Shown piece by piece: positions 91 through 18,284 of a stretch of 64,000 nucleotides of DNA. Below the pieces are notes generated by a model that saw only the letters and a program-made list of their open reading frames with translations, had not been told where the DNA came from and ran no database searches. Numbering within the stretch: the first letter of the stretch is position 1; each line of letters opens with the position of its first letter. Origin of the DNA: Eledone cirrhosa (lineage: Eukaryota); the NCBI GenBank assembly GCA_964016885.1, contig OZ024760.1, forward strand, positions 2,418,001 through 2,482,000. Direction: 5' to 3'. The position numbers and the translations under genes are program-made.

Positions 91-169
91 AACAATCTGG
101 CAGGAAGGTATACGTTGCTGAGGATAGCTAATAAGCTTGAAACTAGTACAGCGTTCCTTTGTCAGTGTT
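91..169 (+). ncRNA. Type I hammerhead ribozyme motif in a (TA)n-flanked insert (insert ~91-272)
   Basis: Stem I acgttg(112-117)/cagcgt(149-154), core CTGAGGA(118-124), stem II agc-taataa-gct, GAAA(139-142), palindromic stem III A-CTAG-T, GUA cleavage triplet. Stem I extends imperfectly (aacaatctggcaggaagg / cctttgtcagtgtt). Confidence 0.8.
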
Positions 170-11176: not shown

Positions 11177-11655
11177 ACCATAATTTTATGTAAGAACCTT
11201 TGTTAAGTTATGTTCCAGACATCAGCTTAACCTATTTGATACCAAAATGCTTGAAACCACCCCCTGGTTCTATGATACAAAACTACTTATTTTAAAGTGT
11301 TTATATTTATCTAAAATCTTCTACCATAATTTTATGTAAGAACCTTTGTTAAGTTATGTTCCAGACATCAGCTTAACCTATTTGATACCAAAATGCTTGA
11401 AACCACCCCCTGGTTCTATGATACAAAACTACTTATTTTAAAGTGTTTACATTTATCTAAAATCTTCTACCATAATTTTATGTAAGAACCTTTGTTAAGT
11501 TATGTTCCAGACATCAGCTTAACCTATTTGATACCAAAATGCTTGAAACCACCCCCTGGTTCTATGATACAAAACTACTTATTTTAAAGTGTTTACATTT
11601 ATCTAAAATCTTCTACCATAATTTTATGTAAGAACATTTGTTAAGTTATGTTCCA
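11177..11655. repeat. 146-bp tandem repeat, ~3.3 copies
   Basis: accataattttatgtaagaac recurs at 11177, 11323, 11469 and 11615. Confidence 0.9.
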
Positions 11656-12649
11656 AACCGCAGCTTAATAGTGAGAAAATTTGTTATATTACTAAATCCA
11701 GCCACTTTCTTAATTATTTGTATGCGATAAATTATATGCGATAAATTTTCATTAGTAATATTCTATCTTATCCTTGGTCACTAACGGAAACGAAGTTAAA
11801 CTTGTTTTACCTTTATTAATGAAATATTTCAAGAATGGCTTAGGTCAGGCACTGAATAATGAAATACATTTTGATAAACAGTTTCTTCTGACATCATTCA
11901 AACTCGACATATATATATCTGACCGCCATAATGCTATCATTGGACAGGGACCAACAGATGCAGTGACATAGAATAGACATTTCCAACTTAGTAAGTATTT
12001 TTATCCCACAGACAATAAACGGAAAGAAATCAAATTTGTTATAAAATCTAAAAACCAACAGAAATAGCATTTCCTCAAATAATTTCCTGTAATATCAGGC
12101 TAGTTTCAAAATATAAATGTCTGCTATATAATTCCATGGCTGCTATAAGTTGATGCACAAACATAGATAGACTTCACCTTTCAAGGTAAAGTTATACTGA
12201 AGCTGAGAAAATATATAAGGAATGATTACAGCAACATCCCTGTTATGCGTTATGCAGCACTTGGCAACAAACCTATTAAGTGTATGTCAGAGATCACCTT
12301 CCTATGAGTTACATAGTAACATGTCATCCAACCCTTACCTTTGGGTCATGAATCTTCCTTAAACACTTCAGCATTTACATTACTCTATATTCACTGAAGG
12401 TACGTGGCTGAGTAGTTAGAGAATTGGATTTGCAATCATGAGGTTGTGAGTTCGATTCCCGGACCAGGCGATGCATTATGTCCTTGTTCAATTTACATGA
12501 CTACTATCACCTTCTTTCATCTTGCTGTCCCTCACATCCCTCTTTCTGCCAGTTAAAACCAGCCAAAATATTCTTCTCTGAGTGTATATACATACACACA
12601 CATATATACATACACACATATACATATATATACATATATATATATATAT

Positions 12650-12932: not shown

Positions 12933-13051
12933 CATATTTAACACATACAAGCACACAAACACACACAAAAAGGAACATCAAAAAAACTTTAGATAAATCT
13001 TGTTATAGGACACGAATAAATGATTTACAACAAACATTATTTCTTATTCCA

Positions 13052-13243
13052 AGGGCGGTGGATTGGCAGTATCGGTAGAGGGTCGGACGCCATGCTTTGA
13101 AGTATAGTGTTACATCCCTTTACGATCTGAGTTCAAATCCCGCCGAGGTTGACTTTGCCTTTCATCCTTACGGGGTCGATAAAATAAAGTACCAGTAATG
13201 CACTGGGTAATTGCTGGCCTTGTGCCTAAAGTAGAAACAATTA
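13052..13243 (+). mobile_element. Full-length Deu/Nin-like tRNA SINE with ~15-bp TSD
   Basis: A box tggcagtatcgg, B box gttcaaatcc. TSD attatttcttattcc on both sides. Confidence 0.85.
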
Positions 13244-14247
13244 TTTCTTATTCCTGTTTTTAAAGTAGACACCATTTTAACCCACTTCACTTCCTAAATT
13301 GAACAATCTTTATTTAAGACTCTTCACCACAACAATAAACACTTTAGCTCACATAATTATGTCACATAATATTGAATCTATGAGATTTTGATATTATTAA
13401 TTTTGAGAACAATACCTTAACATAAGTATGAGCAACCAGTTACAGCCAGTTTGAACAGAAAGAGGTAACAGAATTCTAGCTGGATAAGACTGGTTTAAAT
13501 GCTAAAGGATTAAGGCCTTTCACCACAACAACAAACACTTCAGCTCACATAATATCGAATCTACAAGATTTCAATGTCTATTTTGAGAACAATACCTTAA
13601 AATAAGTAGTGGTTATAGCTGGTTTGAACAGAAAAAGGTGAGAGAATTCTGGCCGGATACGGGCAGTTTAAAAGCTAAATGGTTAAGGCCCTTCACCACG
13701 ACAACAAGAAATTTCGCCAATTCCATTATGGCGTTGTTAATAATGGTGTGAAAAAAAATTTTTTTTTTCTCCCGTACAGTTATTATTAGCTTTTGGAGGG
13801 GAAAGAAAAAATGAAAAGAAAATAATAGGAAAAATAATAAAATAGTAATAAAATTAAAAGAGAGAGAAGAGCGGGAGGTAATGGCTGGTGGAATTGCTAT
13901 TTTTGGGAAATATAATGAAAATAGCTGAAAAATTAATTCCGACAACCTGAAGATATTGTGTGAAATCAATTTTTAGCAAAACAGATGTTCAATGGTGGCG
14001 AATGCGTGTGTGTTAGTGAGTGTGTGTGTGTTTGTGTTTGTGCATGTGTGGTGTATGGATACATGAGTGTGTAAGAGTTCCCAACAATGCTTATATAAAT
14101 ACACACACACTCACACATATATACATATACATATATGTATATATATATATAAATCTTCATCAGCATTTTACATTTGCTATGCATATGTATAATTATGTTA
14201 TTAATGTATATGTGTATACATATACACATATACATGCATGTGTGCGA

Positions 14248-14304
<57 letters not shown>

Positions 14305-14492
14305 TGTGTGTGTGTATATATATACATATGTATATATATATATGTTCTGTTGTGGGCAATGACAGGTCAGGTGACCTTGTCTTGCTCATACAGGAAGTGA
14401 TTTGGATTGATATATATACATATATATATACATACATATATATATATTCATATATACATATATATATACATACACATATACATATATATATG

Positions 14493-14524
<32 letters not shown>

Positions 14525-14526
<2 letters not shown>

Positions 14527-15813
14527 ATAAAAATAATAAAGAATTCATATCTAGTAACATATATATACATACAGATGCATATCAATGCAAGCAAATATAT
14601 AGGTTTTGTCTTAATAACAGTGTGGTTCAATGCATGGGGTTGCAGAACAATAATATAAGAGACGTAAAATAAGAAAATTATAAAATTAACTTACTTACTA
14701 AAATATCACTCCCAACTAATTAGTTTCTGGAATGGAGTAAATATATTTTCCGAAGAATAATATGGAGAAGCATTCCGTCGTCAGGAAAGTCTTTTCTCAT
14801 GTAAGTTTCCAGGCAAAGCGAGGACACTGGAAACTTATTAAAAAATAATTCGGTGGATAGGAAATAGCAAAGCGTGGACTGAATTCCAAGCCATTGAGAA
14901 AATCACTGCCGCTACGTCTGTGGCAAATTCAAAAAGAATCGAACACATGACATCGAGGTCAATCAGTGGAAAGTGGTTTGTTAATAAGACAGCGGCCTGC
15001 CTACAACCGTAGCAGCAGTCATGGCCAATATTGCTCGACAAATAATTTGGAGATAATAATAAAGAATTCATATCTAGTAACATATATATACATGCAGATG
15101 CATATCAATGCTAGCAAATATATAGGTTTTGTCTTAATAACAGTGTGGTTCAATGCATGGGGTTGCAGAACAATAATATAATTTACTCCATTCCAGAAAC
15201 TAATTAGTTGGAAGTGATATTTTAGTAAGTAAGTTAATTTTCTTATTTTCTAATTTTCTAATTTTCTAATTTTCTTATTTTACGTCTCTTATATTATTGT
15301 TCTGCAACCCCATGCATTGAGCCACACTGTTATTAAGACAAAACCTATATATTTGCTAGCATTGATATGCATCTGCATGTATATATATGTTACTAGATAT
15401 GAATTCTTTATTATTATCTCCAAATTATTTGTCGAGCAATATTGGCCATGACTGCTGCTACGGTTGTAGGCAGGCCGCTGTCTTATTAACAAACCACTTT
15501 CCACTGATTGACCTCGATGTCACGTGTTCGATTCTTTTTGAATTTGCCACAGACGTAGAGGCAGTGATTTTCTCAATGGCTTGGAATTCAGTCCACGCTT
15601 TGCTATTTCCTATCCACTGAATTATTTTTTAATAAGTTTCCAGTGTCCTCGCTTTGCCTGGAAACTTACATGAGAATAGACTTTCCTGACGACGGAATGC
15701 TTCTCAATATTATTCTTCGGAAAATATATTTACTCCATTCCAGAAACTAATTAGTTGGAAGTGATATTTTAGTAAGTAAGTTAATTTTATAATTTTCTTA
15801 TTTTACGTCTCTT
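14525..15813. mobile_element. Head-to-head partial tandems of a 523-nt HHR-bearing unit (retrozyme/non-autonomous PLE-like)
   Basis: Period 523 in both arms (14647 vs 15170; 15291-15813). Inversion point ~15180. (TA)n flanks. Confidence 0.75.
15680..15762 (+). ncRNA. Type I hammerhead motif (mirror copy ~14708-14790 minus; 3' half also ~15181-15215)
   Basis: actttc CTGACGA c-ggaatg-(36 nt)-cattcc-a GAAA ctaattag TT ggaagt. Stem III is the perfect palindrome ACTAATTAGT. Confidence 0.75.
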
Positions 15814-15818
15814 ATATA

Positions 15819-15875
<57 letters not shown>

Positions 15876-16189
15876 GCACGTGTGTGTGTGTGTACATCTT
15901 TATATATATGTCATCATGATATATATTATATATATGGTAGGTGTTAAGAAGGGTATCCATCTACATAAGCCATCCTCCCTGTACAGACCACCAAGCTGAA
16001 CATGAAATGTACGAGAAAGACATGGACACCTGACTAGTCTAGCCATAAAACATGACAGCCTATAAACCCAATCGTGGAGTATATATCATCATCATCATCA
16101 TCATCAATTACCCAGTGTATTACTGGTACTTTATTTTATCGACCCCGTAAGGATGAAAGGCAAAGTTAACCTCGATATATACCAAGATA

Positions 16190-16295
16190 ATAATAAATGG
16201 AAACTATATTTATAAAACCATATTTATTTTATTATATATATTTCAAGGGCGACCAAGCAAATCTTGGTGCGTTTTCATCAGATAAAATACAAAAT
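16190..16295 (-). mobile_element. PLE-like HHR end fragment (family of 2825-3060)
   Basis: tattttat CTGATGA aaacgcaccaag..cttggtcgccctt GAAA tatata TA ataaaata (16225-16289). Confidence 0.7.
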
Positions 16296-16670
16296 ATATA
16301 TAAAATACAAAATATATATATGTATATATATGCAAGTTATACAGTCATCAATATATCATCATGATCATCTTTATCAGACATACACATAGGCATACACATA
16401 TACATACATATACATAGATATACACACATACATACTCATAGATATACACACATACAAACACATAGATATACACATAGATATACACATAGATATACACACA
16501 TACAAACACATAGATATACACATAGACGTACACACATACAAACATATATACATACATACACACATACAAACAGACATACACATAGACATTCACACATACA
16601 TACACATATATACACAGACACACACATACATCCACAGACACACACATACAGACGTATTATTATTATATAC

Positions 16671-17250
16671 ATGGTGGCTGCCAACTCGTTTTCGAGTACG
16701 GCCACTACTTTATATCCATGTAGGAGAACCCCTACCGATGCGCTGAACGAGTGTGACTTTTTAGTCCAGCCAGCGACTTGAAAACTCTGGTACAAACACT
16801 ACACTTGTGACAATTATTGACACATAGTGCTGGGCCCATGGTACCATGTGACGACAAGTGCAGAGAGATCTCCAGATATAAAGCAATGCCTGTGCCGTGA
16901 AGCTTTTATAGTGAGCAAAGGCACTGCACAAAGCCAGTCCCACTCTCTTAACCAAGATGATATTTACCAAAAAGAAGAACAAGTCAACATCATTGGATAC
17001 CATCAGAGTTGCAGGTGTTATATCAGAGTTTTCCTTCTCCTAGAATTCTGCCTTGACAAAGGCTAAGGGGTCATCTCTCCCGGTGATTTTGGATGGCCAT
17101 TGACTCTTAAGAGCTCCTTTGCCCTTTGACAGGTTTTGTTTTTAGTCCTGCAGGATGTCCAAAGTCACCCTCCTCACCAAGAAACCTTGGTGGAGTTGCC
17201 AGTTTAGTCGCCAACGACCCGACCATGAGACAGGTTGTACAGGGATACAT
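16671..17250 (-). mobile_element. Internally deleted (bipartite) RTE-type non-autonomous element; second, 5'-truncated copy at 17316-17635
   Basis: 5' part has the RTE-5'UTR-like aggagaaggaaaactctg. 3' part encodes CSVCTRVFKSLAGLKSHTRSAHR* (16732-16812), then a short UTR hairpin. 320 bp are duplicated with a 645-bp period. Confidence 0.6.
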
Positions 17251-17259
17251 GTTACATAT

Positions 17260-17290
<31 letters not shown>

Positions 17291-18284
17291 CACATATACA
17301 TATATATATACATACATGGTGGCTGCCAACTCATTTTCGAGCACGGCCACTACTTCATATCCATGTAGGAGAACCCCTACCGATGCGTTGAACGAGTGTG
17401 ACTTTTTAGTCCAGCCAGCGACTTGAAAACTCTGGTACAAACACTACACCTGTGACAATTATTGATACACAGTGCTGGGCCCATGGCACCATGTGACGAC
17501 AAGTGCAGAGAGATCTCCAGATATAAAGCAATGCCTGTGCCGTGAAGCTTTTATAGTGAGCAAAGGCACTGCACAAAGCCAGTCCCACTCTCTTAACCAA
17601 GATGATATTTACCAAAAAGAAGAACAAGTCAACATACATACAGACATACATAGACATACACACATGCACACACATATACATACACACAGACATACACACA
17701 CATAGACATATATATATATATATATACATACACATATACACACAGACCACACGCATGCACACACACACATGCACACACACACATACATACACACATACAC
17801 AGACATACACACACAGACATATATATGCATACACATATACACACAGGCACACACAGACATAGATACACACACACAGACATAGATACACACACACATACAT
17901 ACATACACACACACAGCCATACACACAAACACACACAGACAGACACACACAGACATACACACACAGACATACACACACACACAGACATACACACACACAC
18001 AGACATAGATATACACACACAGACAGACACACACAGACATACATACACACAGCCATACACACAAACACACACAGACAGACGCACACAGACATACATACAC
18101 AGACATAGATACACACACACATACATACATACACACAGCCATACACACAGCCATACACACAGACAGACGCACACAGACATACACACAGGTGTGTGTTTAG
18201 GTTACAAGTCCTTCAAGATTGATTACAGGTTAGTGTGCAGCTTGTCTTGTAAAGTGCATCTCATCCATTTGATAATGCATTGAT

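Follow-up and report, generated by a model that had tools for sequence, protein, structure and literature searches.

A young non-coding hammerhead repeat of Eledone cirrhosa inserts with two fixed ends and a PLE-type anatomy

We analyzed a 64,000-nt stretch of Eledone cirrhosa DNA (the window; assembly GCA_964016885.1, contig OZ024760.1, positions 2,418,001 to 2,482,000). The locus described here is probably one insertion of a young, dispersed, non-coding hammerhead repeat, the arms of which terminate at two fixed sites separated by 124 nt. The endonuclease and reverse transcriptase (RT) of a coding Penelope-like element (PLE) likely inserted it into (TA)n. Judged from its sequence, the 523-nt unit is likely a passenger of the non-LTR-retrozyme type, copied by a PLE enzyme from two internal start sites.

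In a self-comparison of the window, two inverted arms of 529 nt (14653-15181 and 15289-15817) were 99% complementary, and direct repeats with a 523-nt spacing were detected in each arm. The arms are arranged head-to-head, both reading outward from 15180/15181. Positions 15291-15813 were taken as the reference unit and numbered 1-523. The left arm consists of unit 1-523 (15179-14657, 7 mismatches) and unit 1-125 (14656-14532), and the right arm of unit 438-523 with a 24-nt TAATTTTC expansion, followed by unit 1-523. The right-arm start at 15181 corresponds to unit 438, on the 3′ side of the stem II extension. (TA)n flanks the locus on both sides (Table 1). The unit has a GC content of 35% and was more stable in folding than shuffled sequences (z -3.76, 0/100 shuffles). 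The longest frame on the circular 523-nt unit is 84 codons, and 0/5 tested frames matched Pfam. An ORF for RT and GIY-YIG, as expected of an autonomous PLE, was not found inside the 523-nt element, and a GIY-YIG-like antisense frame of the unit was rejected, as Pfam gave no support. A sequence-only reading of the window had described a 523-nt unit in partial tandem with outward, head-to-head arms, one complete type I hammerhead per unit, no long ORF and a location in (TA)n, and all of these points were borne out. It had also stated that the arms start at different phases. This holds for the inner ends, which vary, whereas the outer ends are the two fixed ends of the family.

Table 1. Features of the insertion (window positions, unless a locus is named)
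Feature	Position	Strand	Basis
(TA)n-rich target tract, outer end of left arm	14410..14531		sequence
124-nt tail (unit 1-124), ends left arm at second fixed end	14532..14656	-	83/179 young TA-flanked arms end here
Full unit of left arm, with 5′ end at unit 522/1	14657..15181	-	self-comparison
Complete type I hammerhead, left arm; core CTGACGA 14784-14778, predicted cut after GUU 14716-14714	14708..14790	-	motif
Right-arm 5′-truncated partial unit (438-523); hammerhead 3′ half (GAAA 15196, GUU 15207-15209); 24-nt TAATTTTC expansion	15181..15290	+	alignment
Right arm, one full 523-nt unit to first fixed end (unit 523)	15291..15813	+	90/179 young TA-flanked arms end here
Hairpin TGTTCTG...GAACCACA, candidate RT-binding signal	15295..15325	+	common to 520-540, 459 and 485-nt families
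Complete type I hammerhead, right arm; stem I 15680-15685/15757-15762, core CTGACGA 15686-15692, long stem II, GAAA 15743-15746, palindromic stem III, predicted cut after GTT 15754-15756 (unit 466)	15680..15762	+	motif, fold
Hypervariable site, unit 415-417; unit 416 is C in left arm, A in right arm	15705..15707	+	between-unit comparison
(TA)n target tract, outer end of right arm	15814..15875		sequence
459-nt and 485-nt hammerhead families	L062:6610-7520; L301:1498-1982		hairpin pattern

A motif scan of both window strands gave three type I hammerhead motifs, one in each arm and a third at position 118. The third motif (110-160, plus strand) belongs to another repeat family, of ~490 nt, a (TA)n-flanked piece of which occupies 90-410; at L071:7990-9900, at least four units related to that family form a tandem array. 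The Rfam covariance models gave no hammerhead match at E<=1 in window 13000-17500, and the output was only miRNA-model noise from (TA)n and the palindrome.

To describe the motif, we compared 242 distinct copies with an intact core and stem III, taken from the fetched loci. Stem II pairs 2, 4 and 5 swap among GC, TA and CG, which are compensatory changes, and stem I has 5 or 6 bp with a matched length change. The cleavage triplet is GUU in 238/242 copies, and 236/242 retain a C.A mismatch at the stem II base. Stem III is the palindrome AACUAAUUAGUU (duplex -10.8 kcal/mol). For the isolated 87-mer, an alternative fold was favoured (-12.2 vs -10.3 kcal/mol for the hammerhead), and the exact hammerhead fold had a probability of 0.0013 in the isolated motif. 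With regard to self-cleavage, the intact core and the covarying stems thus stand against the C.A mismatch and the predicted competing fold. The hammerhead is putatively active, and likely cuts weakly and as a dimer via the palindromic stem III. PLE hammerheads are described as weak dimers in which one more base follows the core (Cervera and de la Pena 2014, PMC4209133). Like these minimal hammerheads, the present motif has an extra base after the CUGANGA box, a G-C next pair, a long helix II, a palindromic helix III and a predicted dimer. Unlike them, it has a second extra base (A) before GAAA in 236/242 copies, and its helix II is extended by an internal loop and a distal hairpin.

A search of the 3.0-Gb genome with the 523-nt unit gave 2,812 candidates, and the 40 of these that were scored contained copies with 98-100% identity on many contigs and chromosomes. 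The exact core motif had 243 matches genome-wide and the exact 3′-end motif had 616, with 0 in the control for each. The unit is therefore multi-copy and not a single-locus sequence, in line with the sequence-only reading, which had taken it for a candidate retrozyme. Like the retrozymes, the family is dispersed and multi-copy without LTR structure, is a short head-to-tail repeat with one type I hammerhead per unit, and has no protein coding. Older siblings of 520-540 nt gave 1,284 and 1,423 motif matches and terminate at the same two sites as the young 523-nt family. Where the second end of an older sibling reads TCTCTA, a (TC)n run is often inserted between this end and (TA)n, as might result from RT slippage at initiation (tail ends of L249, L251, L255 and L260).

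We collected 125 non-redundant loci: 59 from the 3′-motif list (contig C1), 47 more from the core list (C1-C3) and 19 top BLAST loci, which are biased toward long arms. Four of the 125 had no hit of >=90%, leaving 121 young loci. Two complete hammerheads in one arm were found in 35/121 loci; the studied insertion has one complete hammerhead per arm and a 3′ half. The unit and the 523-to-1 joint were also present in independent public DNA contigs from a set of four runs, the two low-share runs not being used.

The young loci yielded 206 arms, of which 179 have a TA-rich 3′ flank. A canonical 3′ end was found in 173 of these 179 (90 at unit 523, 83 at unit 124), with 6 ending elsewhere, and the 5′ ends are scattered across the unit. 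The head-to-head arrangement was detected in 68/121 loci and the tail-to-tail arrangement in 0/121. From 70 pair rows, 18 with one non-canonical end (internal fragments, complex junctions, minor ends) were set aside, and the duplicate L183 and the internal fragment L193 were dropped, giving 50 distinct pairs. In 49/50 of these head-to-head pairs, the 523 end is paired with the 124 end (p 9e-14, computed for 48/49).

These insertions show a partial tandem, an inverted 5′-truncated copy, a tail on one arm and an AT-rich target, as do PLE-mobilised sequences. The insertion anatomy is PLE anatomy. PLE insertions form partial tandems with an inverted 5′-truncated copy and often a tail at one end only, and (TA)n is a preferred target of Naiad PLEs (Craig 2021, PMC8557442). 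A PLE protein cuts and extends both strands of AT-rich DNA, the PLE tail is the segment between two internal RT start sites, and uncut RNA is the dominant PLE substrate (Frangieh 2024, PMC11167929). Self-priming has been proposed for PLE inversions (PMC3846280). Since the outer ends are fixed on both arms, two target-primed starts would fit better than self-priming. The family resembles the endonuclease PLEs (Neptune/Nematis-type linker; PMC8557442, PMC11167929, PMC3846280) also in that the hammerhead lies upstream of the ends. It differs from them in having no ORF and a tail of 124 nt, vs 30-40 nt in the literature and 58-65 nt in two coding families of this genome.

We propose the following mechanism. 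A PLE protein would bind the RNA near the hairpin at unit 5-35 and cut both (TA)n strands. Priming would take place at unit 523 from one DNA end and at unit 124 from the other. The cDNAs would each extend upstream by ~450 nt on average to a random stop, and joining of the inner cDNA ends would give the head-to-head shape. In most events, the template would likely be an uncut, longer-than-unit transcript of one source locus, and new units may be regenerated occasionally by a circle or a template jump. The hammerhead itself would cut weakly. Against the PLE-partner step, no PLE with unit homology or the shared hairpin was found among the loci examined, and against the ribozyme stand the negative Rfam result and a hammerhead fold that is not the minimum-energy one.

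Coding PLEs were analyzed in the same genome, where 10,596 GIY-YIG candidates were found, 150 were scored and 50 were examined. ORFs of 938 aa and 1,096 aa match RT, the 938-aa ORF also matches GIY-YIG, and these ORFs have the CxxxxCxxC linker. Three coding PLE families have copies with 98-99% identity. The pairing of one long with one short end was also seen in these coding PLEs: in coding family B, 15/22 pairs were long plus short, 0 were same-class and 7 were other; in coding family A, 7/10 pairs were long plus short, and 2 pairs had both hits broken at an internal position. Two hairpin patterns searched for a coding partner gave none. Hammerhead repeats beside ORFs in L062, L069 and L071 were rejected, as they are separate insertions behind (TA)n. 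At L134:3161-4080 and L202:2634-2722, no TA spacer separates the unit arms from the 3′ end of another hammerhead-bearing element, to which they are joined; in L134, the unit is joined directly to a coding family-B end. Both chimeras were downgraded as proof of a partner. L134 is weak partner evidence and may be an older neighbour, because its PLE piece has only 95% relatives. One young coding PLE family (L061:4809-7622, minus strand; L062:6195-6235) has an open 938-aa frame and an apparently degenerate terminal hammerhead core (TTGAAAA for CTGANGA). Its sequence suggests that this family may be mobile without a canonical ribozyme.

Two other identities of the repeat have to be considered. The unit may be the terminal repeat of a long coding PLE, with the copies as its truncated ends. 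The ends, tail and inversions are PLE-like, and PLE families are many, the 50 examined loci representing a fraction of them. However, the arms run unit into unit at every phase, and no common upstream sequence was found at a fixed unit position among the 121 young loci and the 18 non-TA flanks. The unit was not the own terminus of a coding PLE at any of the 50 examined GIY-YIG loci. Two of the 50 contained unit-like matches, which are older copies: the first is set off by a (TA)n tract, the second is oppositely oriented, and neither is the terminus of the ORF; a unit match was found in 0/18 family-B loci. We regard this explanation as improbable. The sequence-only reading had considered whether the copies were simply ends of a long coding PLE, and none was attached to one in the loci examined. 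Its suggestion of PLE mobilisation is supported by the insertion anatomy; a homologous coding partner was not found among the same loci. The repeat may otherwise be a satellite generated at the DNA level, or an artefact of assembly, that matches a hammerhead by chance. Some arrays were indeed expanded at the DNA level, and Rfam was negative. Against this, the 3′ ends are fixed, the 5′ ends are random, the copies are dispersed, stem II shows compensatory changes, and the independent public contigs contain the unit and its head-to-tail joint. This reading is already largely refuted, and we give it hardly any weight.

The template of the copying was considered next to these identities. The predicted cut site is crossed by 159/177 canonical arms, with 5 stops vs 5.3 expected over ~227 passes, and no variation or scar was found at unit 466/467. 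Because of this crossing without a scar or excess stops, the template was continuous at the predicted cut, either ligated or uncut. No 5′-end pile-up was detected at the cut site, 523 or 124. One of 47 bins (unit 386-396) was high in 5′ ends (11 vs 4.4), which is nominal over 47 bins. Same-locus units share non-majority letters at 0.83-0.88 vs 0.12 per 100 nt in random pairs (seven times), and at five subfamily sites 171/174 locus-site comparisons agree within the locus. Thus, one source haplotype feeds both arms.

It is possible that the RNA is cut at two hammerheads and ligated to a 523-nt circle, around which a PLE RT runs from the two start sites. The unscarred crossing of the cut site fits a circle, as do the arms longer than one unit (31/84, in the set found by the 3′ motif) and the 35 loci with two complete hammerheads in one arm. 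The stop rate rises from 0.0020 to 0.0044 per nt beyond 523 nt (52 and 28 stops), and this doubling fits a circle or a finite template equally. Private variants are common to different-rank units in several loci (e.g. L129, L195, L208), as a circle predicts, and those of L219 occur in all passes. Because private variants cross ranks in this way, the units are homogenised at some step. Circular RNAs were shown for the retrozymes of coral, mussel and axolotl (PMC7229834). On the other hand, in a test of loci with three segments covering a rare variant (7 skipped for duplications or stacked insertions), 4 loci, namely the studied insertion with 86C, L129, L193 and L220, have the variant only in the same-rank unit of both arms and lack it in another unit. 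Of the others, L219 has it in all segments, 1 locus shows an offset pattern and 3 have it in one arm only. Furthermore, among 26 loci with both comparisons (9 skipped), different-rank units differ more (130/9,253 sites, 1.40%) than same-rank units (71/6,866, 1.03%; nominal p 0.037, non-independent pairs). The same-rank signal is predicted by a longer-than-unit linear transcript and not by a monomeric circle, and gene conversion between the inverted arms could mimic it. This signal is small, with 4 loci and p = 0.037 on non-independent pairs. In addition, cleavage failed in 8/9 dimers of Xenopus retrozymes (Li et al. 2026, bioRxiv 10.64898/2026.07.22.740005), and a PLE did not require cleavage in vitro (PMC11167929). 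The longest arrays, L187, L099 and L002, were rejected as evidence for many rounds of RT, as their private variants form the mosaic of a later DNA duplication; long arrays are partly later DNA duplications. We consider a circular template doubtful as the general route. The sequence-only reading had taken circular permutation as a sign of reverse transcription around a circle, and this argument did not stand, as the arms show two fixed 3′ ends and random 5′ truncation, which occur in coding PLEs too. Mostly linear uncut templates with occasional regeneration are favoured because of the same-rank variants and the rank difference. At L187:2328-7301, nine 521-nt units share private variants and a period-3 variant, a DNA-level expansion of one insertion into a minisatellite.

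A hot spot of variation was found at unit 415-417. Within-locus differences occurred at unit 416 (window 15706) in 32/68 loci, at 417 in 18/68 and at 415 in 15/67, the mean being 2.3%, and all four bases occur at 416. The site was discordant in 43/66 loci (younger half 21/33, older half 22/33) and in 14/22 loci that otherwise have <=1 difference (15 in 3,638 nt). Between the two arms, the first passes disagree there in 23/36 pairs, and the DNA-level duplicates L134/L135 and L111 retain their hot-spot alleles. Ongoing DNA decay is disfavoured as the cause, because the discordance does not depend on age and the most frequent allele has its lowest share (3/42) in the youngest third. The site is 50 nt away from the predicted cut and forms the base of the distal stem II hairpin. 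The public contigs showed a depth dip and loose ends near 15705-15713, which are not unique to that site, so that nothing firm on the hot spot was taken from them. At the homologous site of the older siblings the hot spot is absent (1/25). The PLE-A, PLE-B, 490-nt and 459-nt families offered too few pairs for this comparison or showed only indel-prone runs. Candidate hot spots were seen elsewhere in the older siblings (T>G) and in the 485-nt family (7/17).

The pattern of variants suggests that the hot spot likely arises during copying, at a base that is modified or damaged, at a second site of processing or through a template jump, a technical cause being the alternative. If so, it would label each reverse-transcription pass. 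One form of the jump would be a linear RNA from about unit 417 to the next hammerhead cut, with RT jumping the 50-nt terminal redundancy in every pass and leaving untemplated bases at 415-417. A scar is found at 415-417 and none at 466/467, and the base most often found at 416 is T (A in the cDNA). The site reads YYANWYY, which we take to be an initiator-like motif and counted in the same direction. However, there is no clear stop excess (6 vs 4.7 expected, with three stops at 417 confounded by AT microhomology or fold-back), the hot spot is missing from the same site in the older siblings, and 460T in L129 does not fit. We consider a jump in every pass very unlikely.

The hairpin TGTTCTG...GAACCACA is located at unit 5-35, just downstream of the first fixed end. 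Two further non-coding, hammerhead-bearing families, of 459 nt and 485 nt, have it directly after their first end. The hairpin pattern typical of the 485-nt family gave 1,590 matches, and nearly all of the 100 listed belong to the 485-nt family, which has a head-to-head layout like the 523-nt family and a 115-nt tail. Beyond the hairpin and layout, the 523, 459 and 485-nt families have little similarity. The conservation of the hairpin makes it a candidate RT-binding signal. A more speculative reading, which we hold to be rather unlikely, is that hammerhead RNAs of at least three distinct sequences (520-540, 459 and 485 nt; thousands of copies) form a guild that recruits PLE RT via this one hairpin, with a separate start site for each end of the DNA break. 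In the youngest family, U416, which lies apart from the ribozyme cut, would carry a covalent mark or be a second processing site, and RT would misread it in nearly one of two passes. If true, the genome would preserve a trace of RNA chemistry that took place in a template for retrotransposition.

Corals, mussels and amphibians are known to have non-LTR retrozymes, for which PLEs were proposed as movers (PMC7229834). Li et al. 2026 tie retrozymes to PLE terminal repeats in Xenopus; the four invertebrates that they sampled were three insects and a coral. Like the metazoan non-LTR retrozymes of these reports, the 523-nt unit is a non-coding tandem unit with one type I hammerhead, has low GC and a palindromic weak stem III, and co-occurs with PLEs. 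Its length exceeds the 150-450 bp given by Cervera and de la Pena 2020 (PMC7229834) and is within the 51-972 bp range of Li et al. These retrozymes differ from the present family, in which the arms mostly have 1-2 units, are placed head-to-head in (TA)n and end at two fixed sites; in contrast to those of Li et al., it showed no homology to a PLE terminal repeat in the loci examined (50 GIY-YIG and 18 PLE-B loci). Two consecutive complete hammerheads define an active copy in Li et al., and the studied copy has one complete per arm. The family is also similar to the Chlamys MRC1-type non-autonomous elements, which are non-coding PLE passengers with head-to-tail insertions; it differs in that the Chlamys clade is without canonical hammerheads and passengers generally share 3′ sequence with their partner (PMC8557442); no such shared sequence was found here.

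In the literature covered on octopus and cephalopod hammerheads and on retrozyme insertion, no description of the 523-nt family was found; subscription journals and Repbase lie outside this scope, and the supplement of PMC7229834 may list molluscan families. In the accessible text of an Octopus vulgaris repeat paper (PMC13282606), the words hammerhead, retrozyme and ribozyme occur 0 times. The papers covered leave it open by what route retrozymes are mobilised and whether the RNA copied by PLEs is circular or linear and uncut. The present family ties a retrozyme-type unit to PLE chemistry by insertion anatomy (the 49/50 pairs), beyond co-occurrence. For direct testing, the 523-nt unit can serve as a substrate with two start sites already mapped, and a hairpin as candidate binding signal and young coding PLEs are at hand. 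Even if all of this is routine, it is a family of young mobile elements for which no description was found in the literature searched.

Some minor features were also observed. Just 3′ of the predicted cut, at window 15770-15780 (plus strand), a conserved AG/GTAAGT-like motif is present, which presumably resembles a 5′ splice site consensus. PLEs keep introns. The same motif is conserved in the 485-nt family. Near the locus, tandem repeats of 173 nt and 146 nt (13314-13726 and 11177-11668) and a 192-nt direct repeat with a 645-nt spacing (16664-16855 and 17309-17500) were detected.
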